Assembly (NCBI GenBank): GCA_051382295.1
Contig: JBBCAW010000067.1
Coordinates: 1 to 44,397 of the forward strand
DNA length: 44,397 nucleotides
Source: Bdellovibrionota bacterium FG-1
Lineage (GTDB): Bacteria > Bdellovibrionota > UBA1018
Direction: 5' to 3'
Shown piece after piece: positions 16,891-43,800 of this stretch. The stretch's first letter is position 1, and every line of letters begins with the position of its first letter. Under the pieces are notes generated by a model that saw only the letters and a list, made by a program, of their open reading frames with translations, did not search any database and had not been told where the DNA came from. The position numbers and the translations under genes were made by a program.

Positions 16891-16909
16891 AGAAGTTAAG
16901 CTAACCTAA
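16891..16909 (+). promoter_or_regulatory. Candidate DtxR/IdeR-type iron box
   Basis: AGAAGTTAAGCTAACCTAA matches 15 of 19 positions of TTAGGTTAGSCTAACCTAA with a perfect right half-site; abuts the ATG at 16909. Confidence 0.4.
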
Positions 16910-17271
16910 TGATTATGGAAAATGACTCACTGGAAGATGTCGAAACCAGTTTTATTGACGCCGTATCAAAAACAGCTAACGGAGTATCCAACGTGATCGG
17001 CAAGGGTGCCGGCTATTGTGCTGGTTTTGTGACCCGGATTTACAAGGACACCAAGGAATCCGTAAGCAATTCCTCGTTTTATCAAAGTTCTTTTTCCGGG
17101 GTGGACTTTAAATTCCTGACGAGACGAAGGGGTGAGTCTACTTCGATTCAGGGCGATGAGGGAAATACCCCCGAATTTTATGAAGGCCTGGGGCGAGAGA
17201 TTTTTCACACTGCCAGGGCCGCCGAGAAGAACGAAAATTTAGTCATCATCAACACTTCAAAATATAGATAG
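16909..17271 (+). CDS. Small helical protein, candidate Mad10-like magnetosome protein
   Basis: 120 aa with an amphipathic segment (GKGAGYCAGFVTRIY) and C-terminal helix FYEGLGREIF; divergent from the Mad9-like gene. The family call comes from size and context only. Confidence 0.5.
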   Translation: MIMENDSLEDVETSFIDAVSKTANGVSNVIGKGAGYCAGFVTRIYKDTKESVSNSSFYQSSFSGVDFKFLTRRRGESTSIQGDEGNTPEFYEGLGREIFHTARAAEKNENLVIINTSKYR

Positions 17272-17281
17272 ATCCTAATAC

Positions 17282-18436
17282 ATGACAAATGACGATCCAC
17301 AGGACTCCAAAAGTGATAAAAACATTCTCGAGCGGCTTATTGGCGGGATTCGAGAAGTCGCGGATCCGGCTGACCACGATAAACTTCATGAAAAGGTCGC
17401 GGAGCTGAAGGAGTCCGAAAAGCGCGTGGCCGAGAAGAAGCACCCTTCTGCGGCGCCTCCCGTTGGCTTGGATATCGGCACGAGCCGGATCGTGAGTTTA
17501 ACGAGGGATGCCGGTGGCGAAATTGTTCCGAAAGACCAGTTGAACGCGTTTTTCACGATCCCTCAGTCCCTCTTCGCGGCGCAGATGCTCGAAAAGAGCG
17601 GTATGAAGTTCGCGGAGATCGAGGGCAAGCAGCTGGCGATTTATGGTTACGATGCCCAGCAGTTTAGTAATATTTTTAACGGCGAAGTCCGTCGTCCGAT
17701 GAGCCAGGGCTTACTTAAAGCGAGTGAGCCCCTCGCCATTCAGATGATCAAGCTGATCATCGGCCTGGTCGTCGAGAAGTCCAAGACTTTTGGCACGAGC
17801 CTGTGCTTTGGCGTTCCTGCTCCTCAGATCGGATTCGAAAGCGATTTGATTTTTCATGAGTCCATTCTGAAGAAATATCTCGTGGGTATGGGATATAATA
17901 CCAAGAGCATCACGGAAGGCGCGGCGGTCGTCCTTTCCGAGTTGTCAGAAGATAATTATACGGGCATCGGAATCAGCATGGGCGGCGGGATGTGCAATGT
18001 TTGTTTCTCGTTCCTTTCCGTGCCGGTCATTGTTTTCAGTATTCCCAAAGGGGGCGACTACATCGATTCCAGCGTGGCCAGAGTGGTGAACGAAACCCAG
18101 AGCCGAGTGAGGGTGATCAAAGAAGAATCTCTGGATTTCGGGCGTCCCCCGCGCAACAAGGTCGAGCAGGCGTTTGAGATCTACTACGATGACCTCATCA
18201 TGAGTTTGCTCACCCAGCTTTCGGCCGTGTTCTCTCAATCCCAACACCTTCCAAAATTGAGCCAGGCGATTCCCGTGGTGCTCGCGGGCGGAACCTCTAT
18301 GCCTAATGGCTTCAGGCAGAAGTTCGATAAGGCGATTCGCCAGGCCAATTTACCGATTCAGATTTCCGAGGTCAGGCTTTCAGCGGATCCGCTGCGCTCG
18401 ACCGGTAGGGGCGCACTCATTAATGCGGGCGCTTAG
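17282..18436 (+). CDS. Actin-like ATPase, volactin-like subfamily, with an N-terminal extension of about 55 aa
   Basis: Phosphate-1 GLDIGTSRI, phosphate-2 GISMGGGMCNV, KGGDYID, adenosine VLAGGTS, DPL....GAL. Confidence 0.85.
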   Translation: MTNDDPQDSKSDKNILERLIGGIREVADPADHDKLHEKVAELKESEKRVAEKKHPSAAPPVGLDIGTSRIVSLTRDAGGEIVPKDQLNAFFTIPQSLFAAQMLEKSGMKFAEIEGKQLAIYGYDAQQFSNIFNGEVRRPMSQGLLKASEPLAIQMIKLIIGLVVEKSKTFGTSLCFGVPAPQIGFESDLIFHESILKKYLVGMGYNTKSITEGAAVVLSELSEDNYTGIGISMGGGMCNVCFSFLSVPVIVFSIPKGGDYIDSSVARVVNETQSRVRVIKEESLDFGRPPRNKVEQAFEIYYDDLIMSLLTQLSAVFSQSQHLPKLSQAIPVVLAGGTSMPNGFRQKFDKAIRQANLPIQISEVRLSADPLRSTGRGALINAGA

Positions 18437-18701
18437 ACTGCAGAATATTCAAGCGGTCTTGAAGTTTGAGGACGCTGAATATCCGGTTTTGAATATTTCC
18501 GCGACCGGCGTTTTGATCGGTGGCGGTGCGGACCGTGGCGAATGGGGTCCCATTGACGAAGCGGTGGTTCGTAAAATGAGCGCGGGAGTGTTTCAGTTCG
18601 CGCTCTTGGATTCAAACGGCAGTGAGATGGGTTTCGAAGGCAAGCTCGTGCGGGCCTCGGTGGGGTCCGAGATCGCGATTGTTTTTGGAAATGAGGCATG
18701 A
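18423..18701 (+). CDS. PilZ-like small protein
   Basis: ATG at 18423 overlaps the actin gene end; N-terminal RALR and NISATG (D/NxSxxG) motif; beta-rich. Confidence 0.6.
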   Translation: MRALRLQNIQAVLKFEDAEYPVLNISATGVLIGGGADRGEWGPIDEAVVRKMSAGVFQFALLDSNGSEMGFEGKLVRASVGSEIAIVFGNEA

Positions 18702-19615
18702 AGAAGCGAGAGATTATCGCCGTCGGGGGGGGCAAGGGCGGTGTCGGCAAAACGCTCGTATCCGTTAACCTCGCGCTGGCTTTAACCAAACTCGGCAAAT
18801 CGGTCGTCTTGTTTGACGGCGATCTGGGGAGCGCCAATTGCCACACGCTTTTGGGGATCACGCGGGTCGAGAAATCTCTTGAGGAATATTTCAAGGAAGA
18901 ACTCCGGCTGGATTCGCTCGCGGTGCCCACCCGGTTTCCCCAGCTGAGTCTGATTTGCGGCGCGAGCGGCAAGGTCGACGCCTATCTTTCCAAGCCATTC
19001 ATTATGGAACGGCTGATCCGGGAAATTCTTCAGCTGGAGTATGACTATATCGTGATCGATCTCGGTGCCGGGATCGGGGACGACACCCTTGACCTTTATA
19101 ATCTCTCCCATGAAAAAGTCATCGTGGTGACCCCGCAGTTCACTTCGCTTCAGAACGCGTATAGCTTTGCAAAATCCGCCTTTTTACGCAGCCTCAGTCA
19201 GCAAGAAAGCCTGACTGAGTTTTTGTCTAAGATGCCGGATCCGGTGGTTTTCAGAAAATTTATGTTGGAGTTGCCTTCTCATGACGCAGTCCGCCGGGAT
19301 TATGAATCGGTGGTGCGCGATCAGAAGTTCCGGCTTTTAGGGAATATGATGAGCGGCAAGGAACAACTGGCGATCATCAAAAGAGTGCGTGAAGTGATCA
19401 AGGAATTTCTGGATATCGACTCCGCCGAGTTGGGTTTTTTCACGCAGACCGCGGATGTTCAGAGTTCGATCAATAAGATCACGCCTTTTTTGGAGCTCTT
19501 TCCCGACGATCCCAATAGTCGGGAGATGATGCGGGTCGCCGGAGTTCTTGAGGGTAAGCCGCCGGCGGCGCCACCGCGGGCGTGGTGGAAAATCTGGCAA
19601 GAGATCACGGGCTAG
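18698..19615 (+). CDS. MinD/FlhG(FleN)-like P-loop ATPase
   Basis: Deviant Walker A GKGGVGKT, D.DLGSANCH, IDLGAG, VTP..TSLQNAY. Confidence 0.9.
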   Translation: MKKREIIAVGGGKGGVGKTLVSVNLALALTKLGKSVVLFDGDLGSANCHTLLGITRVEKSLEEYFKEELRLDSLAVPTRFPQLSLICGASGKVDAYLSKPFIMERLIREILQLEYDYIVIDLGAGIGDDTLDLYNLSHEKVIVVTPQFTSLQNAYSFAKSAFLRSLSQQESLTEFLSKMPDPVVFRKFMLELPSHDAVRRDYESVVRDQKFRLLGNMMSGKEQLAIIKRVREVIKEFLDIDSAELGFFTQTADVQSSINKITPFLELFPDDPNSREMMRVAGVLEGKPPAAPPRAWWKIWQEITG

Positions 19616-19617
19616 GG

Positions 19618-20277
19618 CTAGCTCGTCTTGGTTCTTAAGACGAAAATATTACCTGCAGTGGTTTTATCCAAGGCGAGTTCCGTATTTTCGAATGTGATGC
19701 AAAACGCGGGTGAGGTCTGGTGCACTTCGAGGACCACCCCCGGATTGAGGCCGAACGACAGCAGCTGATGAAGCTGGGAGTGATTGCTCGGGCGAATGTA
19801 CATGACCTTGGCGGTTTCGCCCGCATGGAGTTCGCTGAGTGCCGACACGACGGAGTCCACCGTTCGTCGTTTTTGGCCGCAGCATTTGCCCGCCGGGATG
19901 GGGCTATTGTCGGGCGCGAGCTCGGGGTGCCCAAGGAGAGTGCAAATCGACTCCTCGATCTCGGGCAGCAGGGTGTGCTCGACCTTGCAGGCGATTTCTT
20001 CCATTTCCGCGCTCTTGAGTTTTAGGATGCTATGGAGCAGGACTTCCGCCAGCCGATGTCTTCGGATAATTTGCTCGGCCAGCCCCTTGCCCGCGTGGGA
20101 GAAAAGGATCTTATCACCGCTTTTGATGAGGAGGTTTTGCTTTTCGAGCTCCGCCAGATCCTCCTCCGAAAGGCTCACGGCGCATTCTTTTTTAATGGCC
20201 TCAATGGAATATTCTTTTTTTTCAGAGGCGACCCAAATGGCCTCGAGCACTTCATCTTGTCTTTCGTTGGGACTCAT
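19618..20277 (-). CDS. DtxR/MntR-family metal-binding protein with a C-terminal FeoA domain
   Basis: RRHRLAE, ACKVEH, LGHP...P...PIP, then FeoA-like L.EL..GE.AKV...L.SFGL.PG; the N-terminal HTH looks divergent. Confidence 0.88.
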   Translation of the reverse strand: MSPNERQDEVLEAIWVASEKKEYSIEAIKKECAVSLSEEDLAELEKQNLLIKSGDKILFSHAGKGLAEQIIRRHRLAEVLLHSILKLKSAEMEEIACKVEHTLLPEIEESICTLLGHPELAPDNSPIPAGKCCGQKRRTVDSVVSALSELHAGETAKVMYIRPSNHSQLHQLLSFGLNPGVVLEVHQTSPAFCITFENTELALDKTTAGNIFVLRTKTS

Positions 20278-20293
20278 AACTCGTTACGCCTCA

Positions 20294-22255
20294 TTATTTA
20301 AAGGTGATATTCATTAAGCGACAGAAATGATTGAGAACGGTGCCCAGCGCTAGGGAGTAGGTGGTGACGATGGCAAGCACCGAAAATCCTGCCCGCCTTC
20401 CTTGTTCTTTGATGATCACGACGACGGAGTTCAGGCACGGCATGAGCAACAACATCATGAGGAGGTTCACCACGAGCTGGAGATTGGTGTATTTTAGGCT
20501 GTAGTGCTCAAGGGTGGCCGCACCACTTTCTTTACGGATCATGGTTTTGATGAAAACGGTGACACTTTCATCGGGAAGTCCGAGCATTCCGACCGCGATC
20601 GGATGGAGTGCCTTTTCGATGATGGTCAAACCGCCCAGACGACTGAAGACAAAGACCACAACCGAGGCGGCAATAAAAACAGGCACGGCCTCCTTCATGA
20701 AGAAAAGGCTCCGAACAAAAGCGCCCTTGAGCACCCTCATGGGCTTGGGAATGCGCATGGGGGGGAGTTCCATCAGTAACGAGGAGCGGGGCCCCGGAAT
20801 GAGTCGGTTTGCGAGCACACCCATCAAAAGAATCTGAAGGCAGATGATTCCGACAATAGTGAGCGTGGCCGAAACCGGCATTTTGCTCAGAATAATGAAC
20901 ATGACCGCCAGCATCGGGGCACAGGGGACTCCGAGGAGAAGGATCATCGTGGCGATGATTTTTTGTTTGCGCGTGTCGAGCATGCGGGTCGTGAGAATGG
21001 CCATGGTGACGCACGAAAAACCCATGACAATGGGCAAGACACCCTTACCGTTGAGGCCGATTCCTTGAAACGCGCGATCGAGTAAAACTGAAAAACGGGG
21101 AAGGTAGCCCGAGTCTTCCAGAAATCCATAGAAAAAATAAAAACAGACGAGAACCGGAAAAACGAGTCCCGCCGCCAGAAAAAGGCCCATCGGAACCAGG
21201 CCAAAATCGGGGTCGGCGATCATATCTCTCAAAAAGGCGCTCGGCAGGGGGGCGACGAGCTTGTGGACGATCGGCATTAAAATTTGGCCAAAAATTTTGC
21301 CGTTGATCAGGTCCACTAAAAAAGTCGCGCCAAACGAGCCGACAAACAAGAACATCAGGGTGGCCACGAGGAGCGCGATGGGGATGCCGGTCAAAGGCAT
21401 GGAGCACCATCTACCGAATTTTTCAATATAAGGCCCCTTGGTTGGGGGGTCAATTTGTTGAACTCTTTTGACGATGGCGTCAGCGGCTTTATTGTAGATT
21501 TCCGCCAGGGTGTTGTTGAACGGTGCAGGTTCTTTGCGACGGTATTGCTCAGCCAGGGTCTTGAGCTGTTCAAGCGTTCCTTCACCGAAATTTTTGATCA
21601 AGAAGGGTTCGATACTCTTATCCCCCGTAAGGAGGAGAATCGCGATCGCGCGAATCGATCGCACCGGACCTTGGGTGAGGAGCTTGGTGTTTAGGGTGAT
21701 GAAATCCTCGACGTAAGTCGGGTATTTGACGAGCTGTTTTGGGGTTTTTAATGCGGTGAGATAGGATTTGAGGTCTGGAATCCCTCTTCCTTCGGTCGCG
21801 ACCGTCGTGCAGACGGGGACTCCCAGGGCGACTGAAAGCGCTTCGGTATCGATCGTGATCCCGCGCGATTGGGCTTCATCAATCATGTTTAAATCGAGAA
21901 GCAGGGGGACTCCGAATTCGGCGTACTGCAGGATCAGGGCAAGCGAGCGGCGTAGGTTTTTAGCATCCCCAACAAGAATGATTCCGTGTGTCGTGAATCC
22001 GGGGTCGGTTGAAAATAGCGTATCTCGCGAAACTCGTTCGTCTTCACTGCTGCCAAAGATTGAGGTCGTTCCAGGAGTATCAATGACATCGAGCGGCAGT
22101 CCTCGGGCGGCTCCTGAGGTCAGTGAAACGGTGCTTCCTGGAAAGTTAACGCTCTTAGTTTTTGCTCCGCATAATTGGGAAAATAACGTGGTTTTGCCCA
22201 CGTTCATATTTCCAACAATAACAATACGCTGCGTACTCAGAGCGGGGAGAGACAT
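20294..22255 (-). CDS. feoB: Ferrous iron transporter FeoB (Mad17/Mad30-like by context)
   Basis: G1 GNMNVGKT, G2 NFPGSTV, G3 DTPG, G4 NMID, LEDSGYLPR, MGFSC, ELPPMRIP, PC gate motifs. Confidence 0.93.
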   Translation of the reverse strand: MSLPALSTQRIVIVGNMNVGKTTLFSQLCGAKTKSVNFPGSTVSLTSGAARGLPLDVIDTPGTTSIFGSSEDERVSRDTLFSTDPGFTTHGIILVGDAKNLRRSLALILQYAEFGVPLLLDLNMIDEAQSRGITIDTEALSVALGVPVCTTVATEGRGIPDLKSYLTALKTPKQLVKYPTYVEDFITLNTKLLTQGPVRSIRAIAILLLTGDKSIEPFLIKNFGEGTLEQLKTLAEQYRRKEPAPFNNTLAEIYNKAADAIVKRVQQIDPPTKGPYIEKFGRWCSMPLTGIPIALLVATLMFLFVGSFGATFLVDLINGKIFGQILMPIVHKLVAPLPSAFLRDMIADPDFGLVPMGLFLAAGLVFPVLVCFYFFYGFLEDSGYLPRFSVLLDRAFQGIGLNGKGVLPIVMGFSCVTMAILTTRMLDTRKQKIIATMILLLGVPCAPMLAVMFIILSKMPVSATLTIVGIICLQILLMGVLANRLIPGPRSSLLMELPPMRIPKPMRVLKGAFVRSLFFMKEAVPVFIAASVVVFVFSRLGGLTIIEKALHPIAVGMLGLPDESVTVFIKTMIRKESGAATLEHYSLKYTNLQLVVNLLMMLLLMPCLNSVVVIIKEQGRRAGFSVLAIVTTYSLALGTVLNHFCRLMNITFK

Positions 22256-22301
22256 GAATTCTTACGTTTTTGGCCCAGTTATGGCGGCCTGTTTCCTTGA
22301 G

Positions 22302-22520
22302 TTAATCTTCGATTTCGTCCGATTTGGAGTCCTTTTTGGAGGTCGAGGGAATGTGTTCCGTTTGCATTCGCTTGAGTCCGGAGACAATCGCCGCAATTCC
22401 AAAGATGAGTAGAAGAAGAGGCACAACGCCCTTGAAAATGTCAAGGAAGATAAACCACCACTTCACAAACCCCCAGACGCTGAGTAGTAACGCAACAACA
22501 CCGCCCAGAACGCTGTACAT
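22302..22520 (-). CDS. mamI: Magnetosome membrane protein MamI-like
   Basis: 72 aa, two TM helices, pattern M.SV..G..AL.....G...WW.......G.VP..L.IFG..A...G matching MamI as I recall it; GGAGA RBS; MGC neighbours. Confidence 0.8.
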   Translation of the reverse strand: MYSVLGGVVALLLSVWGFVKWWFIFLDIFKGVVPLLLLIFGIAAIVSGLKRMQTEHIPSTSKKDSKSDEIED

Positions 22521-22645
22521 AGAGGTTTCTCCTTGTCAAAGTGGGTATCTTATTAAACCATGATGTTCTTAAAGCCTTTCGGCCAACGCGAGTAGATTCT
22601 TGAGTTATTTAATGGGCGTGCTACGAATTATTTTGAGGGTCAAAA

Positions 22646-23896
22646 ATGGGTGACAACGTGAAAAGTGATAAGGTGCTCGGTGCAATGGTCAAGAATGGTT
22701 CGGTGCTGTTGCGATGCGCTGGAAAATCCCTAGGCTGTGTGCAGGCAGGTTTTCAGAGCGTCGTGCAGGGCACTCGCCGGCTGACTGGGGCCAGCGCCAG
22801 TGGGATGAAGGGGCTCTTTACCGGTGGTCTGCGCAAGAAGCAGGGACTCAATCGATCCGAGGTTAAAACGCGAATTGCCACGCTTGAGAATGATATCCGG
22901 GAAGGCTATCTCAAGGTGGGGAAACTGGGTTCCGGCGTCGAAAACAAGGAGCAACTCTTTGAGGTTCCCGAAATTCGCGAAGTCGTGGAAAAAATAAAAA
23001 TCCTCGAAAATCAGCTCAATTCCCTGAAAAAATATCAGCTAAAACTCGAAAACGCCGAGCTACAAAATGTTCCAGCCGATGCGGTCGCATTTGATGAGAG
23101 TGCGGGTTTGGGAACCTCGGGTGATAAATCCAAAAAGAAAATCAAACACGCGATAGAGGACGGCTTGAAGAAGGCGAAATTCCAGCTTCAGTCGGATGCG
23201 ATTATTTTTCGTAAAGCGCTCTATGATCTTTTGGATCACGAGATGGAAATTAAGAGACTTGCTGCAAGTGAATTGGGGAAGCTCGGTAATAAACATGCAG
23301 GTCCTGCGCTCAAGGCCGCTTTGGAATATGGGGATCCCCAGCTCCAGGCCGAGATTATTAGTTCACTCGTTCGGTTGGAGGATCGGGATACCTTCAGTAT
23401 CTGCAAAGACTTTGTAAAGCACGAGTATGCTCCGATCCGGACCGCTTCGATTCGAGGGTTATATAAGGCGGGGCGCAATAACTCGGTGCCGTATCTGATT
23501 GATGGCCTGAAAGATGATAGCGTCGAGGTGCGTAACTCGAGCGCGATGTTCTTGGGTTGGTGCGAGGCGCCAACGGCAGTTCCAGCTTTACTGCAAGCTG
23601 CAAGCGATGCCGACCGGCGCGTGCGAAAAAGCGCGATTCTTTCGCTTTCGAACATTCGTGACGAGGCTTCTGTGTTGCCGCTGATCAGGCTTCTGGACGA
23701 GGACGACGAAGACTTGCGCAAGGCTACTTTGACGGCAATTGAGCGGATTGGCGGAGTCCCGGTTCCTTTCAAGGGCGGCGAAAAGGCTGATCGGACCGCT
23801 CACGTCGAGGAACTCAAGGAGTGGTGGATTTCTAAGATGTACGAGGGCCCCGCGCCCGTTTCGTCCTCTTCTCCGTCTGGGGGGGCCGCAGAGTGA
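22646..23896 (+). CDS. mad23: Coiled-coil plus HEAT-repeat protein, Mad23-like
   Basis: N-terminal coiled coil, then about 6 HEAT repeats (e.g. LIDGLKDDSVEVRNSSAMFLG); first gene of the coiled-coil run, divergent from mamI. Symbol from architecture and synteny. Confidence 0.7.
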   Translation: MGDNVKSDKVLGAMVKNGSVLLRCAGKSLGCVQAGFQSVVQGTRRLTGASASGMKGLFTGGLRKKQGLNRSEVKTRIATLENDIREGYLKVGKLGSGVENKEQLFEVPEIREVVEKIKILENQLNSLKKYQLKLENAELQNVPADAVAFDESAGLGTSGDKSKKKIKHAIEDGLKKAKFQLQSDAIIFRKALYDLLDHEMEIKRLAASELGKLGNKHAGPALKAALEYGDPQLQAEIISSLVRLEDRDTFSICKDFVKHEYAPIRTASIRGLYKAGRNNSVPYLIDGLKDDSVEVRNSSAMFLGWCEAPTAVPALLQAASDADRRVRKSAILSLSNIRDEASVLPLIRLLDEDDEDLRKATLTAIERIGGVPVPFKGGEKADRTAHVEELKEWWISKMYEGPAPVSSSSPSGGAAE

Positions 23897-24864
23897 AGCG
23901 CATGGAAGTTTTGACGAGTAGGCTCCCGTTCCTTCATAAAAAAAAAGAGGATGTCATCGGCCAGATTTCGGAGCGACTCTCGAAGATCGTGACCAAGATC
24001 CAGGCAAACGCGTCTTTAAGTGAAGTTCGGGAGGAGTACGATGTGGCTGTGGGTCATTTAGTGGCTCTAGCTGAGACAGAAAGGGATACGAGGCTTCAGG
24101 CCCGGGTTCGTAATGTCCAATCGACGTTAAAAAATGCGGGTACGTTGGTTGAAAAGAAGGATCAGTTGCGTCTTGAAATCTCTCGAATCATGACGCATTT
24201 GGGCCAAATCGCTGAAACGCCCCGGTTTTCTGAGGCTGCACCAGTGGCCACGGCAGAGAGTATAGAAGAAGTCATTCGCGCAAAAGATGAAATAGACGAG
24301 ACGATGGCGACCGGCAGGCAGCTCACGGAACGCCTTCAAGAGCTTCAAGATCGTACGGCCTTCATGGCGCAGGAGATTGAGAAAGTTACCGTCGAAAATC
24401 AGGCGATGTTCGAGGAAAACAAGGCGCTCCGGGAGCAGTATGCGCAAGCCGTTCAGACGCATGACGAGGGTAAAGAGGTTTCTCGGGTCCTTCAAAACAA
24501 GGTTGCAACCGCGCAAATCGAGTGCAATCGGCTTCTTCTTGAAATTCAGTTTCTGAGCAGTGAGCGGGCGGGCGTGCTTGAAAATCTGGATGGCGATTAC
24601 GAAAGTCTGGTGAATCTTTCAAAGCGTTATCGTGAATTACAGCGTGGCTACGGACTGGTGAAGGACGAGGCTGGAGTCTACGAAGATTTATTGGCGCAGC
24701 TCGATTCGTTGCTGGGACGAACGCGTCAGGAGAAGAAGGTCCTTCTTGAGAAAACGGCTGAATCCGAGAAATCCTTGGAATCCTTGATTGAGGAGTTACG
24801 GGCCGTGATCAAGAAAGGTAAAGTGCAATTCTATGCTCAACTGGAAGGCGGATCAGAAAAATGA
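23893..24864 (+). CDS. mad24: Coiled-coil protein, Mad24-like
   Basis: Heptad-rich 323 aa; GTGA overlap with the mad23-like gene. Symbol by synteny. Confidence 0.55.
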   Translation: MKRMEVLTSRLPFLHKKKEDVIGQISERLSKIVTKIQANASLSEVREEYDVAVGHLVALAETERDTRLQARVRNVQSTLKNAGTLVEKKDQLRLEISRIMTHLGQIAETPRFSEAAPVATAESIEEVIRAKDEIDETMATGRQLTERLQELQDRTAFMAQEIEKVTVENQAMFEENKALREQYAQAVQTHDEGKEVSRVLQNKVATAQIECNRLLLEIQFLSSERAGVLENLDGDYESLVNLSKRYRELQRGYGLVKDEAGVYEDLLAQLDSLLGRTRQEKKVLLEKTAESEKSLESLIEELRAVIKKGKVQFYAQLEGGSEK

Positions 24865-25373
24865 AGGTTGAAGAAATCAAGAAGGGCTTGAGAGGACTCT
24901 CCGAGCTTCGGATCGAGGATCTGACCAAGGTTTCGAGCGAGGTTCTTCAAGGCAACATCGAAAGCATGTTGTCTGCTATTCGCGTTTTGGAATCGCAGCT
25001 CAAGGACACCATGGAGGTGAACGCCGCCCTGCGGACTGAGTCGAAGATGCGGGATGCCGATATTTTGGCGCTGAAGCGCGAAAATCAGGACCTTCAATTT
25101 CGCCTGAGAGAGTTAGAAAAACAGGTTCCTCTGGTTGACGATGTGGAGAAGCGCTTTGAAATCGCGCTTGAAAGAATTGAAGAGTACAAAACATTGTTTC
25201 AGCGGGAAAAAGACAAAACCCGGGGCCTGGCGGTCCAGGTTGACAGTCTGGCCGGGGCGCTCAAGAAGACCGAGGAAGAGCGCAACGATGCGTATAAGGA
25301 AGTGGTCGTGCTGATGAATAAGCTCGAGCAGCCGGAGCAGTTAGCGGAGCAGAAGGGCATACAAAATGGGTAA
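24861..25373 (+). CDS. mad25: Coiled-coil protein, Mad25-like
   Basis: 170-aa heptad protein (LSELRIEDLTKVS...ERNDAYKEVV); ATGA overlap. Symbol by synteny and size. Confidence 0.55.
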   Translation: MKVEEIKKGLRGLSELRIEDLTKVSSEVLQGNIESMLSAIRVLESQLKDTMEVNAALRTESKMRDADILALKRENQDLQFRLRELEKQVPLVDDVEKRFEIALERIEEYKTLFQREKDKTRGLAVQVDSLAGALKKTEEERNDAYKEVVVLMNKLEQPEQLAEQKGIQNG

Positions 25374-26130
25374 TGGCTCAGAGCTGAAAAGGAAGCTGTT
25401 GGATAGCTGGGATCAGATTCGGAGCAAGTACCCGATCGTGGTCGCCGCCGAAGTGGTTGCGGGCGATCCGGTGAAGACCGATTTTTTGAGCTGTATTGAT
25501 GGTCTGAAAACCGCCGAAGAGATTGAGCAGTTTTTCACCCTGAATGCGAGCGAAGCGCATCTGATTTTCACGGATCTGATGAACGTGGGGGCGATTCGCT
25601 TTCTCGATGATGGCGAGCGTCTAGGTTATCTCAAACGCCATGCCATCGAGCTTGAGCGAAATCTGGTTTTCCTTCGTTCGGAGCGCGAACGGCTCCGCGG
25701 TGAGTCTTTGTATCTCAATAAGCAGACCCGCGAGAAAATGCTTGAGGTCGAGGCGTTTAAGACGAAGATTCCGGCGCAGGAGGAAGCCTGCCAGCAGTTG
25801 ACGGGCAATCTGAATTCGCTTCAGGCGAAGTCCCAGGGGCTTTGGGAGCAAAACGCGGAACTTTTTGGGGTCGCTAAAGACGTCAAGCACAAGACGGACG
25901 TGATCAAGACCGGACTGGAGAAGTTGGAGGATCAATTTCCCAAGGTCATGAGAAAAAAAGTCAAGGTGGCGGAACGGTATCGGAAGAACGAAGAAATGCG
26001 CCACACGAGCAAGGACAAGAACGCCGCCGTCGAAAAGAAGCTATTTGAATATCACGATGCTTTGAGTGAAGTCCGCGAATACCTTGAGGACACGAAGTTA
26101 CGAGTGAAGGGTTTTTCGGAACAGGACTAA
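25366..26130 (+). CDS. mad26: Small N-terminal domain plus coiled coil, Mad26-like
   Basis: 254 aa; winged-helix-like N-terminus (FLSCIDGLKTAEEI...L...GAIRF), then a coiled coil. Symbol by synteny. Confidence 0.55.
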   Translation: MGNGSELKRKLLDSWDQIRSKYPIVVAAEVVAGDPVKTDFLSCIDGLKTAEEIEQFFTLNASEAHLIFTDLMNVGAIRFLDDGERLGYLKRHAIELERNLVFLRSERERLRGESLYLNKQTREKMLEVEAFKTKIPAQEEACQQLTGNLNSLQAKSQGLWEQNAELFGVAKDVKHKTDVIKTGLEKLEDQFPKVMRKKVKVAERYRKNEEMRHTSKDKNAAVEKKLFEYHDALSEVREYLEDTKLRVKGFSEQD

Positions 26131-26148
26131 AGAGAATGAGGGTTTGTA

Positions 26149-28014
26149 GTGATCAGGGAATATCCAATCGTCCTAAAAACAGTCCATGGCCGAAAAGAGG
26201 CGCTCGTCCGCCAAATTAGGGCTGATTTGGTGGCCTTGAACCGGGTTTATGAAATCCTTCCGGGTCATGAGGAAATCGAGACCACTCTTTGTCAGGATCT
26301 AGACTGGCTGGTGCAGCAGGATATTGCCGAAGAAATTAAACTCGCTTTCTATAATCCGATTGATTCGACCGATATTTTCCTGGAAAAAAAATATCGTCTC
26401 GGGCTTTTTAATACCACCGCGCGCGCCGGGGAGGTGTCACAGGATCTTGATCAGTGGCGCTTGCCGGACTCTTACGAGTTTGACGTTTTCGTATATTTCA
26501 AAAAGAGTTTTTTGGCTTTGAATTCCCAGGAGCAAGGACGCCGCCTCAGCCGCTTTCACTTCGGTTGGTTTGATTTGGAGAGTTTTTCGACGGATTTACC
26601 CGACAGCCTGCCGTCAGCGGTCAGCATTCAGCCGTCAGCCGTTAGCTCTCAGCCGTCAGCTGTCAGCTCTCAGCTGAGCGTCAAGAAGCACGAGGCGAGT
26701 CATTCCATGACTGGACCGTTCACCTCGGAAAATGGCAAGTCGCTTTTAATCGCCTCTTACACAGATTCTAGAAAGTTGATCGGTGAGTTTATTCAGACGG
26801 CGGCGACGCTTGGCCTCGCCCCCGTGCAATGGACTTACTCTGAGGGGCTTAAGCCTTTAGGCGCGACTGGAGCCTCCGCTATTCCGGACTTTGCTTCCAG
26901 CTACACCTATGACGATCGGCTCTTTTCGTCGCAAAAGCGAGTGTCGCCGTGGGATTTGCTCGGGACGATTCGAAATGAATGCCAGAACGGGCATCGAAAG
27001 AATACGCTCTATTTGCTCGAGGATTTTCATTATTATCTGACGCGCGAAAACCTGTCGGGGCAAGAATTTGCCGAAATGATTTCGATGATCAAGTCCGTGC
27101 CCGAGCCCCTGAAGCGCGCGGGAAGTTTTCTGGTGATTCTGGCCCCGAGCCTGGATTTGCCCCCTGAAGTTGCACCCATCTTTGATACGATCAAGGGGGA
27201 GTCGAGGCTGAAGTCCACGCAGTTGCTCGAGCGTTATGGGCGTGATCTCACGAAACTCGTTCTTGAAAAGAAGATCAAACCCGTGGTGGGACGAGATTCA
27301 GAGATTCGGGAGTGTCTCAAGATTCTTTCGCGGCTCGAGGGCAATAATCCGTTGCTCGTGGGCAAGGCCGGGGTGGGAAAAACCGCGATCGTCGAGGGCT
27401 TGGCGATCCAGATCGTGAGGAATGAGGTGCCTCCGGCATTCCGAAATAAGCGGTTGATTGCCCTCAATTTGAATGCCGTGATTTCGGGAACCAAATATCG
27501 GGGGGAGTTTGAAAAGCGGTTGGAAGGCTTGCTCGAAGAGGTGATGTCGAACGCCGAGAGCATTATCGTCTTCATTGACGAGATTCATACGTTGCTCGGA
27601 ATGGGGAGCACGGAGGGGTCCGCAGGGGCTGAAAACATTCTTAAGCCCTATCTGGCGCGGGGAGAGTTTCCCTGCATCGGTGCGACCACCTATGACGAAT
27701 ACAAAAAGCATATCGAGCCCGACCGGGCTCTCGTCCGGCGGTTTCAGGTGGTCGATATTGCAGAGCCTAATGCGAGCCAGACGGTTGACATCCTGATGGG
27801 GATCAAGAATATTTATGAGAGTCACCATCGAGTCAAGATTTCAAACGATGCCGTCGTGAAGTGCGTGGAGGCCGCTGGAATGTTGACGCAGCAGTATTTC
27901 CCCGGAAAGGCGATCAAGCTGCTCGATAGCGTTTGTGCGTCGGTGTCGTTTGCGGGAAAAGACTCAGTCACTCCCGAGAGTGTCGTCACGGAGTTTAAAA
28001 GGTTGTCTCAGTAG
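26149..28014 (+). CDS. Hybrid AAA+ protein: unknown N-domain, Ycf46-like degenerate AAA domain and a single ClpA/B NBD1
   Basis: C-terminal half has YGRDLT, PVVGRD.EI, NNPLLVGKAGVGKTAIVEGLA, GTKYRGEFE, FIDEIH, IGATT..EY, AL.RRFQ, P.KAI.LLD. The middle region has W..SEGL, LLEDFH, LVILAP.LDLPPE. No NBD2. Confidence 0.85.
   Translation: MIREYPIVLKTVHGRKEALVRQIRADLVALNRVYEILPGHEEIETTLCQDLDWLVQQDIAEEIKLAFYNPIDSTDIFLEKKYRLGLFNTTARAGEVSQDLDQWRLPDSYEFDVFVYFKKSFLALNSQEQGRRLSRFHFGWFDLESFSTDLPDSLPSAVSIQPSAVSSQPSAVSSQLSVKKHEASHSMTGPFTSENGKSLLIASYTDSRKLIGEFIQTAATLGLAPVQWTYSEGLKPLGATGASAIPDFASSYTYDDRLFSSQKRVSPWDLLGTIRNECQNGHRKNTLYLLEDFHYYLTRENLSGQEFAEMISMIKSVPEPLKRAGSFLVILAPSLDLPPEVAPIFDTIKGESRLKSTQLLERYGRDLTKLVLEKKIKPVVGRDSEIRECLKILSRLEGNNPLLVGKAGVGKTAIVEGLAIQIVRNEVPPAFRNKRLIALNLNAVISGTKYRGEFEKRLEGLLEEVMSNAESIIVFIDEIHTLLGMGSTEGSAGAENILKPYLARGEFPCIGATTYDEYKKHIEPDRALVRRFQVVDIAEPNASQTVDILMGIKNIYESHHRVKISNDAVVKCVEAAGMLTQQYFPGKAIKLLDSVCASVSFAGKDSVTPESVVTEFKRLSQ
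26615..26677 (+). repeat. Nine tandem CAGCnnT heptamers, in frame (63 bp)
   Basis: cagcggt cagcatt cagccgt cagccgt tagctct cagccgt cagctgt cagctct cagctga, encoding a SAVS(I/S)QP linker. Confidence 0.85.
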
Positions 28015-28049
28015 CCTTTTGAGTTAGAATTTCCGGGAGGGGTGCAGCA

Positions 28050-30140
28050 ATGAAAAGTAAAAAAAAGATCCTCGTCGTGGACGCCAATAGTCAGACTTTG
28101 AAAGAGTTCATAGGTGAATTTGGCCGCGACTATGAGGTTGCTTCTTGTGCGGACGGCAAATCAGCGCTCGAACAGCTCGAAACTTTTCAACCTGAGGTGT
28201 TGGTGGTCGATGAGGCGCTTGTGGATACACCCTTTACCGAGATATTGGGGCAGGCCGCCAACGGCGTGATCAGGATTGTGACGACCGCAGGGCTGCCGGA
28301 TACCGAAAAGGTTTTTGATTCGGTGAGTGCCAAGCTCGCGGACACATGCTTTGTCAAGCCGCTCAACTATCTCGAACTGCGAAACGTGATTGAAAGGATC
28401 GCGGCGCTGCGGGCCGGTCATGCAGTCGGCGATGCCGACATTCAAGCCGTCTACCAAAAAGTACATACCATCTTTGATAAGGTGAGCGACGCGGAAAAGC
28501 TTCAAAAAGAGGCGCAAAGTCAGCTAGAAAAGGCGCGAAAACTCGAAGAGCAGAGTTTGGCTCGGGTCGAGAACGTGGCGCGCGACCATCAGAGGTTCAA
28601 ACAAAAAATCAGTGACCTCGAAAAAGAAATGGGGTCTAGCAAGGATAAAGCTAAACAGCTCCAGGGACAGAACGAGGTTCTGACCAAGGAAAAAGAGAAG
28701 GCTCAGGACACCCTGAAGGAAATCGAAATCCAGGTCGATTCGACCAAAAGCGCGACTTTGCATGTTTCTGCGGATCTCAAGGTCAGCGGGCGTCAAAAGA
28801 TCGACGGCAAGGACTCGGTTTTGTTCGTGGATGACGAAGAAGACCTTCGAAAAATGTTTTCTGACGTATTTAAGAGCAAATTCAATATTCATCTCGCGGA
28901 CTGTGCGGATGCGGCCGTTATGGCGCTGACGCAGCATCCCGAGGTGGCTTTGGTGGTCACGGATTGCCGGATGCCTCGAAAAACGGGGATTGAGTTGTCC
29001 TATGAAATTCGTAAAACCCATCCCGATCTGCCTATTTTTCTCCTCACTGGATTTGGCGAAATGGACGCCGCGATCAAGGCGATGAATGAAGGTGCCATTC
29101 AACAGTACTATGGCAAGCCCTTTAAATCGGTCGAATTGAGCAAGGCGATCCGTGAGGGGATTGACAAGAGTGATGACGCCGTCGCGCAAAAAACCCTGAT
29201 TTCGGCCAAGAAGGGCTTCGTCGTCGATCGAATCAAAGACTTGGTAGCGCAGGTGGCGAGCCTCGAGCACAACTATTCCAAGGTTCATGAGGAGGAGGAG
29301 CGGCTGCGAGGGGAATCGGCGAAAATGAGCCAGGAGTTGGTCGAGATCAAGACCGAAAGAGATGAATTGAGAGTCTCGGTCGTTAAAGAACGAGAACAGA
29401 TGCGTGACGAGATGGCCGAGGAGAAGCGCAAAGTCGACGCCGACATCGCCAAACGCATGGATGAAGCCACGAGGCTTTTAGAGACCGAAAGGCAAAAATA
29501 CAAAGACGAACTCGTGGAGTTGGAGCTCAAGTTCAAGGCGGACAAGGAAAAAGCCGAACTTCAGTTGGCCGAGATGCGAAAGAAGATGGAAGCCGAGCAG
29601 GCCATCGAGCAGCAGAAGCTGGTCGATGAACGTCAGAAGCTCGAGCTTCAGTTAGCCGAAACCCGCAAGCAGATGGAGATCGAGAAGGCCGATATTGAGG
29701 CCAAACTGGTCATCGAGCGTAAAAGGGGCGAAGAAGAGCTCGCCCGGGTTCAAGCGGATATTGCCGGGACCAAGGCCAGGATTGAAGCGGAGATTCGGCA
29801 GGAGCTGATCGAAATGAAAAGAGTGGCCGAGGCGGAGATCGAAATATTGAAGAAGACCGTCACGAAGGATCTCGACAAACTTCGGGAAGAGTCGATCAAA
29901 AAAGAAAAAGAACTCAATGAGAAGATCAATCAGGTGGGCCGTACGCTTCGTGAAAAAGAAGATGAACTCAACACGAAGAAGCGCTCCATGGCCGAGATGG
30001 AAAAAGAAATGGTGAATATGAAACGAGAGCGCGACGTCGCGGTCAAAGAGCATGATTCCATGAGGGGTGAGTACGACCTTCTGACTCAGTCTCGAGATGC
30101 GCTGGACGCGGAACTCAGTGAATTGAAAGGATCCAGATAA
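28050..30140 (+). CDS. REC-coiled coil-REC-long coiled-coil protein
   Basis: REC1 (ILVVD, VVDEAL, KP), canonical REC2 (FVDDE, VTDCRMP, LTG, KP), then more than 300 aa of E/K/R-rich heptads; TAATG coupling to the mad28-like gene. Confidence 0.85.
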   Translation: MKSKKKILVVDANSQTLKEFIGEFGRDYEVASCADGKSALEQLETFQPEVLVVDEALVDTPFTEILGQAANGVIRIVTTAGLPDTEKVFDSVSAKLADTCFVKPLNYLELRNVIERIAALRAGHAVGDADIQAVYQKVHTIFDKVSDAEKLQKEAQSQLEKARKLEEQSLARVENVARDHQRFKQKISDLEKEMGSSKDKAKQLQGQNEVLTKEKEKAQDTLKEIEIQVDSTKSATLHVSADLKVSGRQKIDGKDSVLFVDDEEDLRKMFSDVFKSKFNIHLADCADAAVMALTQHPEVALVVTDCRMPRKTGIELSYEIRKTHPDLPIFLLTGFGEMDAAIKAMNEGAIQQYYGKPFKSVELSKAIREGIDKSDDAVAQKTLISAKKGFVVDRIKDLVAQVASLEHNYSKVHEEEERLRGESAKMSQELVEIKTERDELRVSVVKEREQMRDEMAEEKRKVDADIAKRMDEATRLLETERQKYKDELVELELKFKADKEKAELQLAEMRKKMEAEQAIEQQKLVDERQKLELQLAETRKQMEIEKADIEAKLVIERKRGEEELARVQADIAGTKARIEAEIRQELIEMKRVAEAEIEILKKTVTKDLDKLREESIKKEKELNEKINQVGRTLREKEDELNTKKRSMAEMEKEMVNMKRERDVAVKEHDSMRGEYDLLTQSRDALDAELSELKGSR

Positions 30141-31345
30141 TGTCGGAAACTCATGAAACGGTCGCCGTAGGGGGCGAGCTTGGCACGTCCTCCTGCAAGT
30201 TTTGTTGCGAAGATACGGTGCTCCTGTTTTCGTCCGTGGTCGGCGACGCCTTGACGGAGTCGATGGAAAATAGCTGGCGGCACATGAACCGCTCCGTGGA
30301 CTCCCGTTGGGTGAGAAACCTCGCGGTTTTTGATGATTCCCGAAGCGCGTGGCGCTACGTCGGAGCCATGACCCGGCGTTCTGAAAAGACCGATTGGTTT
30401 ACCCACAAGGGCTTGATCACCAATCATGACGATGCGTTCGTGGCGATCAAAGCCGGCCTGTTTTTGCTTTTTCTGGAAATGGAGAAAAAAGGAAAACCCT
30501 TGGATCGGATCGGCTTGGGATTTGGCATCACGGTTCGACACGGGGAAAACGTGATCGAAAAGTTTTTTGCCTATATCAAGGATCATCTCGTGGTACGAGA
30601 CGGCAAAAAATACCTCGCGATCAAGGCCAAGAATGTGGCGCTCAACGAAGTCCGTGAGATTGAGATTCAAATGGATTTTTGCGTGATGCAATACCAGGCC
30701 TACGGCGCGTATATGGCGCTCCTCTTTAGTAAGTATAATATGGCGGTTCAAAACACCTATGTCGTCGATATCGGACATGGCACGTGGATCAAGCTGCCGA
30801 TTATCGACAATGAAGCGGAAATCGGACTTTCTGATTCCTTTACCGAAGGCATTTTTACGATCACCCGCAATATCAGCAATGTGATTTTCGAGAGTAGTGG
30901 CCAGAAGTTCAAGATTCCCGAGCAGCGGTTGATGGAGAGATTGCCGAGCAAGGATTACAAAATCGAAGTGCCGGGCACGGGCTTCTTTGATTTTACGAAA
31001 CTTCTGCAACAGCAGACGGCGGTGCTCGCGCGCAATATTAGTGACAAAATAGCCGTAGATATCGCCACCTTATCCGCCAAGGGGCAGTCGATCGATTACT
31101 TCATTATTATTGGCGGCGGGGCTCATCTTTTGTTTGAAGGCATCAAGAAGAACATTGGTGAGTACTTTAATTGGAGTCAAGAAATCCTGGATCAGCGCGT
31201 GATGGGTGCGGAAGCGACGGGCGTGGACCCCCGGCATATCAACTGCGTGGGCTTTATGCTCCTGGCCCGGGATCAGATCGCGATGGACAGTGGTAAGGAT
31301 GTTGTGCCAGGATTTTCGGTCACAAATATCATTCAAGAATTTTAG
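30140..31345 (+). CDS. mad28: Actin-like magnetosome protein, Mad28-like
   Basis: Atypical phosphate-1 VGGELGTSSCKF, SSVVG, phosphate-2 VVDIGHGT, adenosine IIGGGA; about 400 aa; follows mad23-26-like genes. Confidence 0.72.
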   Translation: MSETHETVAVGGELGTSSCKFCCEDTVLLFSSVVGDALTESMENSWRHMNRSVDSRWVRNLAVFDDSRSAWRYVGAMTRRSEKTDWFTHKGLITNHDDAFVAIKAGLFLLFLEMEKKGKPLDRIGLGFGITVRHGENVIEKFFAYIKDHLVVRDGKKYLAIKAKNVALNEVREIEIQMDFCVMQYQAYGAYMALLFSKYNMAVQNTYVVDIGHGTWIKLPIIDNEAEIGLSDSFTEGIFTITRNISNVIFESSGQKFKIPEQRLMERLPSKDYKIEVPGTGFFDFTKLLQQQTAVLARNISDKIAVDIATLSAKGQSIDYFIIIGGGAHLLFEGIKKNIGEYFNWSQEILDQRVMGAEATGVDPRHINCVGFMLLARDQIAMDSGKDVVPGFSVTNIIQEF

Positions 31346-31381
31346 GCAAGAATTTTAAGCGAGAATATTAGGGAGGTTTTT

Positions 31382-31909
31382 ATGGACGTTTCTTATCTGT
31401 GCATTGATGCAGAGCTCGAAAACTTGTTTAACCGGTTCGGCAAGCAGCATCCCGAAGGCTCCAAAGAGGTCTTGAAGGTCGTACTGAAGACCTATTTGAA
31501 GCTGGTCGAAACCAGTCGCAAGCGGGGCACGGATCCGCTTTTGAGTCTTCAAGATTTGGTCGAGCGCATCACCTCGGGCGATATGTATCGATCGACCAAG
31601 GACAAGATTAATAGTCTTGATTCCATGTTGGAGGCCAAAGAGGATCAGTCCAGTCACTTGGAAGGTTCCGCCCTTTTTGAGGAAATTCGAGAAATTAAAA
31701 ACACCATGCGCAAGATGCAGTGGAGTCAAGGCCCATCCGGGCCCGCGCAAGGAAGCTCACAGGGAAGTGCAGAGGGTAGTCTGAGTGACTTCAATCCCAA
31801 GGATGCGGCCAAGCTGATCACGATCGAGGAATCCAGCGAAATCAAAAAGGGCGCGAACTATATGGAGATTCGCAAGAAGGGTAAGCCCCCCAAAAAGATC
31901 GTTTTTTAA
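31382..31909 (+). CDS. Hypothetical protein with an RHH-like N-terminus, flexible linker and basic C-tail (possible Mad27/Mad29-position protein)
   Basis: GGAGG RBS; 175 aa; lies between two actin-fold genes. Confidence 0.7.
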   Translation: MDVSYLCIDAELENLFNRFGKQHPEGSKEVLKVVLKTYLKLVETSRKRGTDPLLSLQDLVERITSGDMYRSTKDKINSLDSMLEAKEDQSSHLEGSALFEEIREIKNTMRKMQWSQGPSGPAQGSSQGSAEGSLSDFNPKDAAKLITIEESSEIKKGANYMEIRKKGKPPKKIVF

Positions 31910-31926
31910 GTGGATAGAAAACGCGC

Positions 31927-32940
31927 GTGAAAAAAATTTACCTCGATCCGGGCGCGTTTTATACGAAGGTCTATGTCCTGGAGTCGACCGCCTCGAATGG
32001 GTTTAAGTTTTTTGGAAGAAGTTTCTTCCCTACGGCGGCCGCGCAAGTCTTGGAAATACCTGAACGGGTCATTGGCTACGAGCATGGCGGGAGCCGTTAT
32101 CTTGTGGGGAGTGATTGCCCGGGTGACCTTTGGAATGTCGCGGATACCAGTGACGCGGGACTGGCTCGGAACGCGCTTATCATCAAATTAATCGTCAACA
32201 AGGCGCTTTTTGATTATGCAGACTCCGACGACGAGGTCGAGTTACACGTCGTGGTCGATACCCCGGAGAAAAGGGGTATTTTCGAGGCAATTACGACGGA
32301 GCGCACGGGCAAATTGACGGTCGCGGGTTTTCGCGGTCCGAAAAAGATCGCCAAGACGCTGACTCTTCAGATGAAGGTGTTGCCCACCTCGGATGGCGTG
32401 CTGGGCTATCTCAGAAAGATTAAGGCCCAGTTTGATTCCTCGCTTTTTGTCGACATCGGCTACTCCTCCACGAAACTGTACGTTGCGAGCGCCCGGCAGG
32501 GCGTGGAGAAGTTTGCGACCTTTGAGTTCGGGGCGCGCTTCTATCTCGACGCCATTATTCGGGCGCTCAAGGATGAAGGTATCGGGCCCCTAGAACCGTA
32601 TTGGCTCACGAAGCAGCTCGAGTTGGGTTGCAAGTCGCTTGAGGTTACGAACGAGGGGCATGCGAGTCGGCAAGTCGATGTGTCTTTGATCCTGGAAAAC
32701 GCACGATGGGACACCAACAAGGATTTTAAAAGAATCACCGTCGATTTCATGACGGATTATTATAATAACAATTCGAGGTGGCCGGGTTTGCTCGTGGTCA
32801 CCGGCGGCGGGGCGCTCTTTAATGGCGATTTGCTCTGCACGGCTTTGGCTCACGACGGCTATCGGTTCGACGATCTTTTTATTGATAAGAGCCCTCTGTA
32901 TACAGTGCTTGAAGGTCTGGCACGATCAGGGATACACTAG
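31927..32940 (+). CDS. Divergent actin-like ATPase (ParM/StbA-like fold)
   Basis: Phosphate-1 IYLDPGAFYTK, FPT, phosphate-2 FVDIGYSSTK, adenosine VVTGGGA. Confidence 0.8.
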   Translation: MKKIYLDPGAFYTKVYVLESTASNGFKFFGRSFFPTAAAQVLEIPERVIGYEHGGSRYLVGSDCPGDLWNVADTSDAGLARNALIIKLIVNKALFDYADSDDEVELHVVVDTPEKRGIFEAITTERTGKLTVAGFRGPKKIAKTLTLQMKVLPTSDGVLGYLRKIKAQFDSSLFVDIGYSSTKLYVASARQGVEKFATFEFGARFYLDAIIRALKDEGIGPLEPYWLTKQLELGCKSLEVTNEGHASRQVDVSLILENARWDTNKDFKRITVDFMTDYYNNNSRWPGLLVVTGGGALFNGDLLCTALAHDGYRFDDLFIDKSPLYTVLEGLARSGIH

Positions 32941-32971
32941 AACGAGTATCTAGACATGGAGGTCATTTACG

Positions 32972-34333: not shown

Positions 34334-34342
34334 AGGGAGAGA

Positions 34343-38347: not shown

Positions 38348-38365
38348 GACGGAGTAGGGGGGCAA

Positions 38366-43260: not shown

Positions 43261-43739
43261 TGAATCACACGGACATTTTGGCAAACGACGGCAATACCAA
43301 TGGGAGTGATGAAAAGAGGGCTCCTCAGGAGCCGCTTCAGTCCGAACCTCTCAAGACGCCGAGAAAAACAGGGGATCGTATCAGAGTTTTAGTCATCGAC
43401 GACGAAGAGCCCATCCGTACAGGTTTGATGAGGCTTTTGTCTCTGGATGGCTACGACGTAATGGGCGCGGAGCATGGCGCGCGGGGTATGGAGGTTTTCG
43501 CACAGACTTCTCCGGAGGTCGTGATTACAGATATTCGGATGCCGACCATGGACGGGATCGGAGTGCTGAAAGCAATCAAGGCAAAATCACCTGCAACGGT
43601 GGTCATCATGGTCACGGGCCATGGAGATAGCCGTACCTTTCGCGATGTTCTGGCCTTAGGGGCTTTTGACTACCACGAAAAGCCCGTGGGTTATGAGGCG
43701 CTGGTTTTATCGATCAAACGCGGACTTGGATTGGTATAA
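43260..43739 (+). CDS. Single-domain response regulator
   Basis: VIDDE, ITDIRMP, TGHG, KP; no output domain. Confidence 0.88.
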   Translation: MNHTDILANDGNTNGSDEKRAPQEPLQSEPLKTPRKTGDRIRVLVIDDEEPIRTGLMRLLSLDGYDVMGAEHGARGMEVFAQTSPEVVITDIRMPTMDGIGVLKAIKAKSPATVVIMVTGHGDSRTFRDVLALGAFDYHEKPVGYEALVLSIKRGLGLV

Positions 43740-43800
43740 GCGGGTCCCCCAGTTTTTGAGTGGTAATTATCAGTATGTGGTTATAGCATTTCGTTACATC

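Follow-up and report, generated by a model that had tools for sequence, protein, structure and literature searches.

A two-actin ParM-type cassette together with mad28 in a mamK-less magnetosome gene cluster of a Bdellovibrionota bacterium

Mad28 and a second pair of actins in one magnetosome gene cluster

We analyzed a contig of 44,397 nucleotides from Bdellovibrionota bacterium FG-1 (assembly GCA_051382295.1, contig JBBCAW010000067.1, hereafter C67); the window, meaning the whole stretch analyzed, is the entire contig. It holds a magnetosome gene cluster with three genes for actin-fold ATPases, A, B and C. Actin A carries the signature of Mad28, which has already been reported for such clusters (PMC13200544), and B and C enclose a small gene, R, to form the cassette B-R-C. 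Apparently, then, the cluster combines one known actin, Mad28, with an undescribed two-actin cassette of the ParM type. On balance, we lean towards the view that B-R-C is a ParMR-like cytomotive cassette doing MamK's job, positioning magnetosomes where MamK is missing. This view starts from the folds, the synteny and the distribution of the genes and extends from them to polymerization, cargo and subunit roles, which we infer.

A preliminary description of this DNA, made from its letters alone, had reported three ORFs with phosphate-1, phosphate-2 and adenosine motifs in three versions, none of them a canonical MamK. Both statements hold. The ORFs start at positions 17282 (A, 384 aa), 30140 (B, 401 aa) and 31927 (C, 337 aa), and their phosphate-1, connect-1, phosphate-2 and adenosine motifs read GLDIGTS, TEGAA, SMGGG and AGGT in A; GGELGTS, YQAYG, DIGHGT and GGGAH in B; and LDPGAFYTK, PTSDG, DIGYS and GGGAL in C. 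No mutual similarity among the three proteins was detected with phmmer. Our criterion for MamK was the NCBIfam model NF040964 with its cut-off of 400 bits; A scored 19 bits, B and C gave no match, and both B and C fall in clades apart from MamK.

Actin A has the features of Mad28

Judged by its sequence, A is an ordinary Mad28. It scores 253 bits on the Pfam family Volactin (PF25216; cut-off 35) and shows the Mad28 signature as described in PMC10653835, with phosphate-2 SxGxG present as SMGGG and connect-1 xExx as TEGA. Homologs with 44-45% identity occur in two of the five genomes that have both mamK and mamI, and in genome G425 a homolog lies within a mad23 operon that lacks B, R and C. The assignment rests on the published motif description, the Pfam family and these homologs, as no Mad28-named sequence stood among the matches listed (120 of 3577); a PDB search with the single sequence of A gave 0 matches. 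We noted no notable difference between A and Mad28, a family to which B and C do not belong.

B and C have ParM-type folds

By their predicted structures, B and C are neither MamK nor Mad28; they are ParM/CorM/Ta0583-like actins. Structure prediction, which the preliminary description had proposed as a check alongside an actin phylogeny, gave a complete actin fold in the AlphaFold models of both proteins (pLDDT 90.2 for B, 91.9 for C). The model of B matched Dh-cParM1 best (Z 30.0, rmsd 4.2, 342 residues aligned), followed by CorM (Z 29.7, rmsd 3.0, 319 aligned) and Ta0583 (Z 29.5, rmsd 3.0, 312 aligned), with MamK lower (Z 21.4, rmsd 3.6, 297 aligned). For C, the best match was Ta0583 (Z 24.2, rmsd 3.2, 299 aligned), followed by CorM (Z 24.0, rmsd 3.1, 299 aligned) and pCBH ParM (Z 23.8, rmsd 3.8, 300 aligned), and MamK again scored lower (Z 17.9, rmsd 4.2, 287 aligned). 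Foldseek agreed with a ParM-type fold for both, and ParM-type structures ranked above Hsp70 domains.

The phylogeny, a quick tree of 57 rows, placed B and C outside the MamK, MreB and Mad28 clades. It recovered separate groups for B (12 rows, support 100), C (10, 99), A (9, 100), MamK (8, 94) and MreB (6, 100). That the folds of B and C lie 6-9 Z units above MamK, together with their own clades, supports the proposed reading of the cassette.

At the sequence level, B matches Pfam MreB-like_C (E 4e-7) and C has no Pfam match at E 0.01, while 14 of the 32 relatives of C match MreB-like_C weakly. Profile comparison aligns the C-terminal half of B with that of C (probability 94%, E 1e-7). pSK41 ParM was a weak sequence match (E 0.015). 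A profile search of C returned weak, unrelated matches only. The full-library profile search (26 matches) showed B to be one tight family plus a 684-aa paralog, followed by Heimdallarchaeota 'ParM/StbA' proteins (E 4e-20), whose group neighbors B in the quick tree (SH-aLRT 83). These closest relatives outside the family (P0154, P0157, P0158 and kin) are of an archaeal type and uncharacterized; the Heimdallarchaeota name comes from the cluster of P0154. Among the matches listed, the databases call relatives of the two actins nothing more specific than 'hypothetical' or 'ParM/StbA family protein', and none bears a Mad name (120 of 203 and 23 of 23 matches listed). We also considered whether B and C could be the named Mad27 and Mad29. 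This is not supported: the accessible literature that has both names gives only 'ATPase domain' or a gene size.

The ATPase sites of the two actins differ. Residues Q184, Q186 and G189 and the motifs DxGHGT and GGG are invariant in 94 of 94 B sequences, in which the acidic residue of phosphate-1 is Glu 74 times and Asp 19 times. In C, motif register puts Ser, Ala, Thr or Val at the counterpart of Q186 in 31 of 32 sequences, and the second Gly of phosphate-2 is absent. B, which keeps the full set of ATPase motifs, is probably the main filament subunit, and the motifs of C suggest a partner of B whose hydrolysis may be impaired.

The B-R-C cassette is conserved in order

B, R and C lie closely spaced on the same strand, in one operon with mad23 and coiled-coil genes. 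Their order is retained in 16 of 17 related genome loci, and the remaining locus ends at a contig edge inside B. Within the mad operon, B keeps 63-85% identity; its closest relatives (82-85%) come from records titled Oligoflexia or Bdellovibrionota, FG-2 included. Because mad28 follows the cassette in the same locus in 9 of the 17, we regard the layout of the window as rearranged from the order mad23-coiled coils-AAA-receiver/coiled coil-B-R-C-S-mad28-minD. The small gene S lies upstream of mad28 in the window and in three close relatives, and elsewhere between C and mad28; it precedes B in L027 and stands apart from both mad28 and B in G416. We rejected a core of two parM-parR pairs, with S as the partner of C, on account of this variable position.

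Some loci depart from this arrangement in detail. C is split into two ORFs at L015:9083-10089, and two mad28 copies adjoin a single cassette in L021 and L032. A second B paralog of 684 aa is encoded at L031:6882-8936 (G354); its added C-terminal part resembles a receiver plus coiled coil by eye, with no Pfam receiver match, and echoes the receiver/coiled-coil gene upstream of B in the window. Two tandem repeats of 13-15 nt lie at 31333-31360, across the stop codon of B and upstream of R.

R consists of a helical N-terminal part, a linker and a conserved basic C-terminal tail with a terminal Phe. In a three-chain prediction, R residues 130-175 were placed on B with a score of 0.58, against 0.01 for the best control and 0.00 when B was replaced; the contacts agreed to at least 68%, with a partner pLDDT of at least 53. 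The mark set for such scores is reached by 116 of 157 solved pairs and 2 of 215 mismatched pairs. This lends weak support to a docking of the basic tail of R on B. An Atlas search with an R homolog gave scores all under 0.8.

The distribution of B mirrors that of mamK

We found no mamK in the 97.7% complete assembly, where the only sizeable match of the MamK model was MreB, and a census with purpose-built MamK and MreB profiles yielded no further MamK candidate there. Among 401 genomes of the same phylum, B was present in five, exactly the five with three strong mamI matches; two others had one weak mamI match each. C occurred in 4 of 61 relatives, all within these five. The 17 B-bearing genomes, which include records titled Syntrophales, Deltaproteobacteria and Acidobacteriota, all matched mamI (with best E values from 2e-18 to 2e-11, below the cut-off), and none reached the MamK cut-off, the best score (88 of 400 bits) being MreB.

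The phylum of G408, a record titled Syntrophales, was surveyed in the same way. There, 16 of 401 genomes carried MamK-like genes, five of these with mamI, and B was found solely in G408 and in none of the 16. The MamK-family genes of the other 11 stood without a mamI match, so that MamK-like genes also occur outside recognizable magnetosome clusters. As these are draft genomes linked by kinship, we treat the distribution as a pattern, with no statistical test.

This pattern bears on a question left by a recent study. Magnetotactic Bdellovibrionota were described in 2026 as forming chains without mamK, with mad17, mad23, mad25, mad27, mad28, mad29 and mad30, and Mad28 was proposed as a substitute (PMC13200544); FG-1 is, we infer, an organism of that kind. 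In its accessible text, that study leaves open which gene forms the chains, suggesting Mad28, and its main text uses 'ParM' once, as general background. B-R-C offers a specific alternative. The cassette also extends the mamK-less cluster type to records of other phyla and provides a marker for magnetosome clusters missed in mamK-based surveys.

The cassette also occurs without magnetosome genes

The cassette is a general module, since it is found in loci without magnetosome genes as well. Among 60 metagenome loci, a mad- or mam-like neighbor was present in 28 of the 31 whose B has at least 60% identity. Five GC-rich loci carry B, then a long middle gene, then a C-like gene (profile scores 50-66), and four of six scanned middle genes (L072, L077, L081 and L082) have an MshEN match at the N-terminal domain, which suggests, from sequence, that the long middle genes may be under c-di-GMP control through an MshEN-like domain. 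In L068, L075 and L078, B adjoins FeoB, DtxR-FeoA or Fur genes, with FeoB in all three and Fur also in L078, and has no mam or mad neighbor; in L068 and L078 the middle gene and the C-like gene accompany B. These contexts hint at the positioning of another iron-related structure.

Lower-GC loci have B and a short R-like gene, with no C; at L067:1837-2884 an ArsA/GET3-type ATPase takes the place of C after B and R. All partner genes of B close with a basic tail ending in Phe or Leu. In profile comparisons, R matched the short partners of the lower-GC loci (probability 70%, E 4e-5). Homology of R to the long middle genes was considered and dropped, as the comparison was not significant (probability 2-5%) and only position and tail motif agree.

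Relation to known filament systems

B-R-C resembles MamK in its actin fold, its place in a magnetosome cluster and the job we propose for it. It differs in that B and C lack a match to the MamK model, form separate clades, score lower against the MamK structure and belong to a three-gene cassette with its own putative adaptor, which was not found in the same genomes as mamK. The best fold matches of B and C are type II ParMRC actins (R1, pSK41, pCBH, Alp7AR, Dh-cParM1) and Ta0583, and B-R-C also shares with ParMRC a gene order in which a small gene comes after the actin gene; the binding of its product's C-terminal tail to the actin is weakly predicted. In contrast to ParMRC, B-R-C is chromosomal, lies in a mad operon and has no parC array in three scanned stretches. 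Identity to these actins and to Ta0583 is 11-19%, and B-R-C has a second, degenerate actin.

The nearest precedents for a chromosomal ParMR reused as a cytoskeleton are CorMR (10.1101/2025.06.27.661541) and FcmBC (PMC12645912) of filamentous cyanobacteria. As in these systems, B-R-C pairs a chromosomal ParM-type actin with a putative adaptor, probably used beyond DNA segregation and without a centromere in the three stretches scanned; a MinD-like gene lies nearby, and CorM is among the best folds. The differences are an identity of 16% by structural alignment, one actin there against two here, and the role of CorMR in cell shape.

We found no description of the B and C actins in the accessible text of the literature searched, including PMC9840458, PMC7951924, PMC9376291, PMC7602337 and 10.1101/2024.04.27.591411, a search that covered articles outside their supplementary gene tables. 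Fig. 5 of Bergot may include B, C and R among its conserved genes without names, and they could be the mae4 and mae5 of 10.1101/2022.07.08.499144, reported there as similar to Bdellovibrionota and Planctomycetota genes, with no actin assignment in the accessible text.

Proposed mechanism and alternatives

In strain RS-1, MamK spaces subchains along the cell and Mad28 keeps them where curvature is positive (PMC12748827). In AMB-1, MamK-dependent positioning was not restored by the Mad28 of RS-1 (PMC12713370). From this division and the lack of rescue, a chain former without MamK plausibly needs another filament. Our model suggests that A, following the RS-1 work, would hold the chain at the concave membrane, while B-R-C, a ParMR-like cassette of its own on the chromosome, would have been placed in the mad operon by this lineage to act for MamK. 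B, with its fold and intact site, would polymerize with ATP. The basic C-terminal tail of R would, as is weakly predicted, hold on to B in the way that ParR holds ParM, and the N-terminal part of R would tether B to the coiled-coil Mad23-26 scaffold or the membrane rather than to a DNA centromere. C, with its degenerate hydrolysis site, could serve as nucleator, cap or stable co-subunit. If so, ParM-type actins have been reused for organelle positioning, and a bacterial actin works with a degenerate paralog.

A bolder extension, which we regard as doubtful, is that a second magnetoskeleton was recruited independently: a ParM-derived cassette with two actins (active filament subunit, adaptor and pseudo-ATPase nucleator) would position magnetosomes in all mamK-less magnetotactic lineages and other cargo in non-magnetotactic bacteria, possibly iron stores under c-di-GMP control via MshEN. 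The cassette would then position organelles in general, its two bacterial actins dividing the labor in an Arp2/3-like manner. The preliminary description had itself proposed a magnetoskeleton with one or two extra actin families. B and C do add two families to a magnetosome cluster that lacks MamK; A, by contrast, is an ordinary Mad28, and B-R-C is one cassette rather than independent filaments and also occurs with no magnetosome genes nearby. We therefore find the proposal partly supported, a multi-filament magnetoskeleton being no more than a possibility in this organism.

Several observations weigh against giving MamK's job to B-R-C. The exclusivity of mamK and B comes from draft genomes of related lineages, with only five mamK- and mamI-bearing genomes on the opposite side, and four of the five own-phylum B genomes are apparently among the 17. 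A mad- or mam-like neighbor was seen in 0 of 29 metagenome loci whose B has less than 60% identity, many loci being short; a non-magnetosome job elsewhere means that the cassette could keep that job here. The quick tree splits B, C and the ParM-like outgroups (Alps) from MamK, MreB and Mad28 at an SH-aLRT of only 90, carries a long-branch warning and uses outgroups chosen by B's own profile. Family, Atlas and PDB searches gave no ribbon-helix-helix or ParR match for R, and the score of 0.58 sits in the band up to 0.60, where no more than 18 of the 157 solved complexes lie, along with the two mismatches that passed. Finally, Mad28, which partly complemented mamK loss in MSR-1 (PMC10653835), may suffice alone.

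If Mad28, the substitute proposed in PMC13200544, aligns the chain by itself, B-R-C could be a cell-shape or polarity cytoskeleton like CorMR and FcmBC, or a scaffold for neighboring signaling proteins, helping magnetotaxis indirectly through curvature or swimming polarity. CorM is among the tied best folds of B and C, translation of B is coupled to that of a receiver-coiled-coil gene, ten two-component genes follow C, and the MshEN domain occurs on four of six scanned middle genes outside magnetosome clusters. We nevertheless hold this explanation to be rather unlikely: in the longer loci, mad23-26 lie on one side of the cassette and mad28 on the other, B is absent from 396 of 401 genomes of the phylum, so that it is no general shape system, and the exclusivity of mamK and B is left unexplained.

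The ParM-type fold, the parM-parR gene order and the name 'ParM/StbA family protein' that NCBI gives to some relatives would also fit a ParMRC-type DNA partition system, a relic or servant of a mobile element that spread this cluster type; near-identical operons in distant taxa do suggest transfer. However, the stretches 16700-16930, 22250-22660 and 29900-33000 contain no parC-like repeat array, the 1-nt overlap leaves B no promoter space of its own, the contig has the composition of the genome, and the identity of B within the mad operon remains at 63-85%. Described ParMRC systems are not known to include a second, degenerate actin, which likewise counts against partition, and we consider it highly unlikely. 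We find it just as improbable that B and C are non-polymerizing actin-fold ATPases, or chaperone-like partners of the Clp-type AAA+ protein that remodel the Mad coiled-coil scaffold. The degenerate hydrolysis motifs of C, the change of the phosphate-1 Asp to Glu in 74 of 94 B sequences and the conserved AAA+ gene upstream of B speak for it; against it, B and C come closest in structure to filament-forming actins of the ParM type, with Hsp70 domains ranking lower, and the AAA+ gene occurs in a mamK-bearing operon without B-R-C and does not accompany the cassette in loci outside magnetosome clusters.

Organization of the window

The features of the window are collected in Table 1. The mamI-like gene, the sole mam gene inside the window, lies between feoB and mad23 as it does in relatives, and is too short for the 80-aa ORF cut-off. 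The genes of the mad23/coiled-coil operon overlap by 4-8 nt. The MinD/ParA-family ATPase is probably Mad29. The Clp-type AAA+ ATPase, with 44-73% identity across mad operons, may remodel the coiled-coil scaffold.

Table 1 Coordinates of the features of the window and what each assignment is based on
Feature	Position	Strand	Basis
S, small conserved protein	16909..17271	+	conservation in relatives' loci
Actin A, Mad28 (Pfam Volactin family)	17282..18436	+	253 bits on Volactin; SxGxG and xExx signature
MinD/ParA-family ATPase 3' of mad28	18698..19615	+	family scans; syntenic in relatives
FeoB and DtxR-FeoA genes, Mad17/Mad30-type	19618..22255	-	family scans
mamI-like gene, 72 aa	22302..22520	-	MamI model, E 5e-15, 57 bits, below 80-bit cut-off
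HEAT-repeat Mad23-like gene and three coiled-coil genes (Mad24-26-like)	22646..26130	+	family scans; operon start for B-R-C
Clp-type AAA+ ATPase, one AAA module	26149..28014	+	family scans; conserved upstream of B
Receiver-domain and long coiled-coil protein	28050..30140	+	family scan; stop overlaps B start by 1 nt
Actin B, ParM/Alp-type, 401 aa, full ATPase motifs	30140..31345	+	model, Z scores, invariant motifs
R, putative adaptor of 175 aa in ParR-like position	31382..31909	+	synteny, alignment, complex prediction
Actin C, divergent ParM/Alp-type, 337 aa, degenerate connect-1 and phosphate-2	31927..32940	+	model, Z scores, motif counts
Ten two-component genes directly after C	32972..44334	+	family scans

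The remaining mam genes lie on contig C18 of the same assembly, in an operon of mamI, A, Q, B, P, E-type and M whose matches are under the curated cut-offs. The window contig, C18 and the genome are alike in base composition; no overlap joining C67 to C18 was found, and in relatives' loci L018 and L019 B and mam genes occur together. Runs of two-component genes near such clusters have been reported (PMC13200544), and such genes resume at C18:200-2806, with a hemerythrin gene ahead of the mam operon. TauE-family (MamO C-terminal-like) and ferredoxin genes lie at 15498-16723 on the minus strand, divergent from the mad28 unit. Toxin-antitoxin pairs of the AbiEi/AbiEii and TumE-like types occupy 567-1982 and 13355-14016, and the 21 bases that open the contig are found again in nine others, in eight of them at a contig end, in the manner of an insertion sequence.

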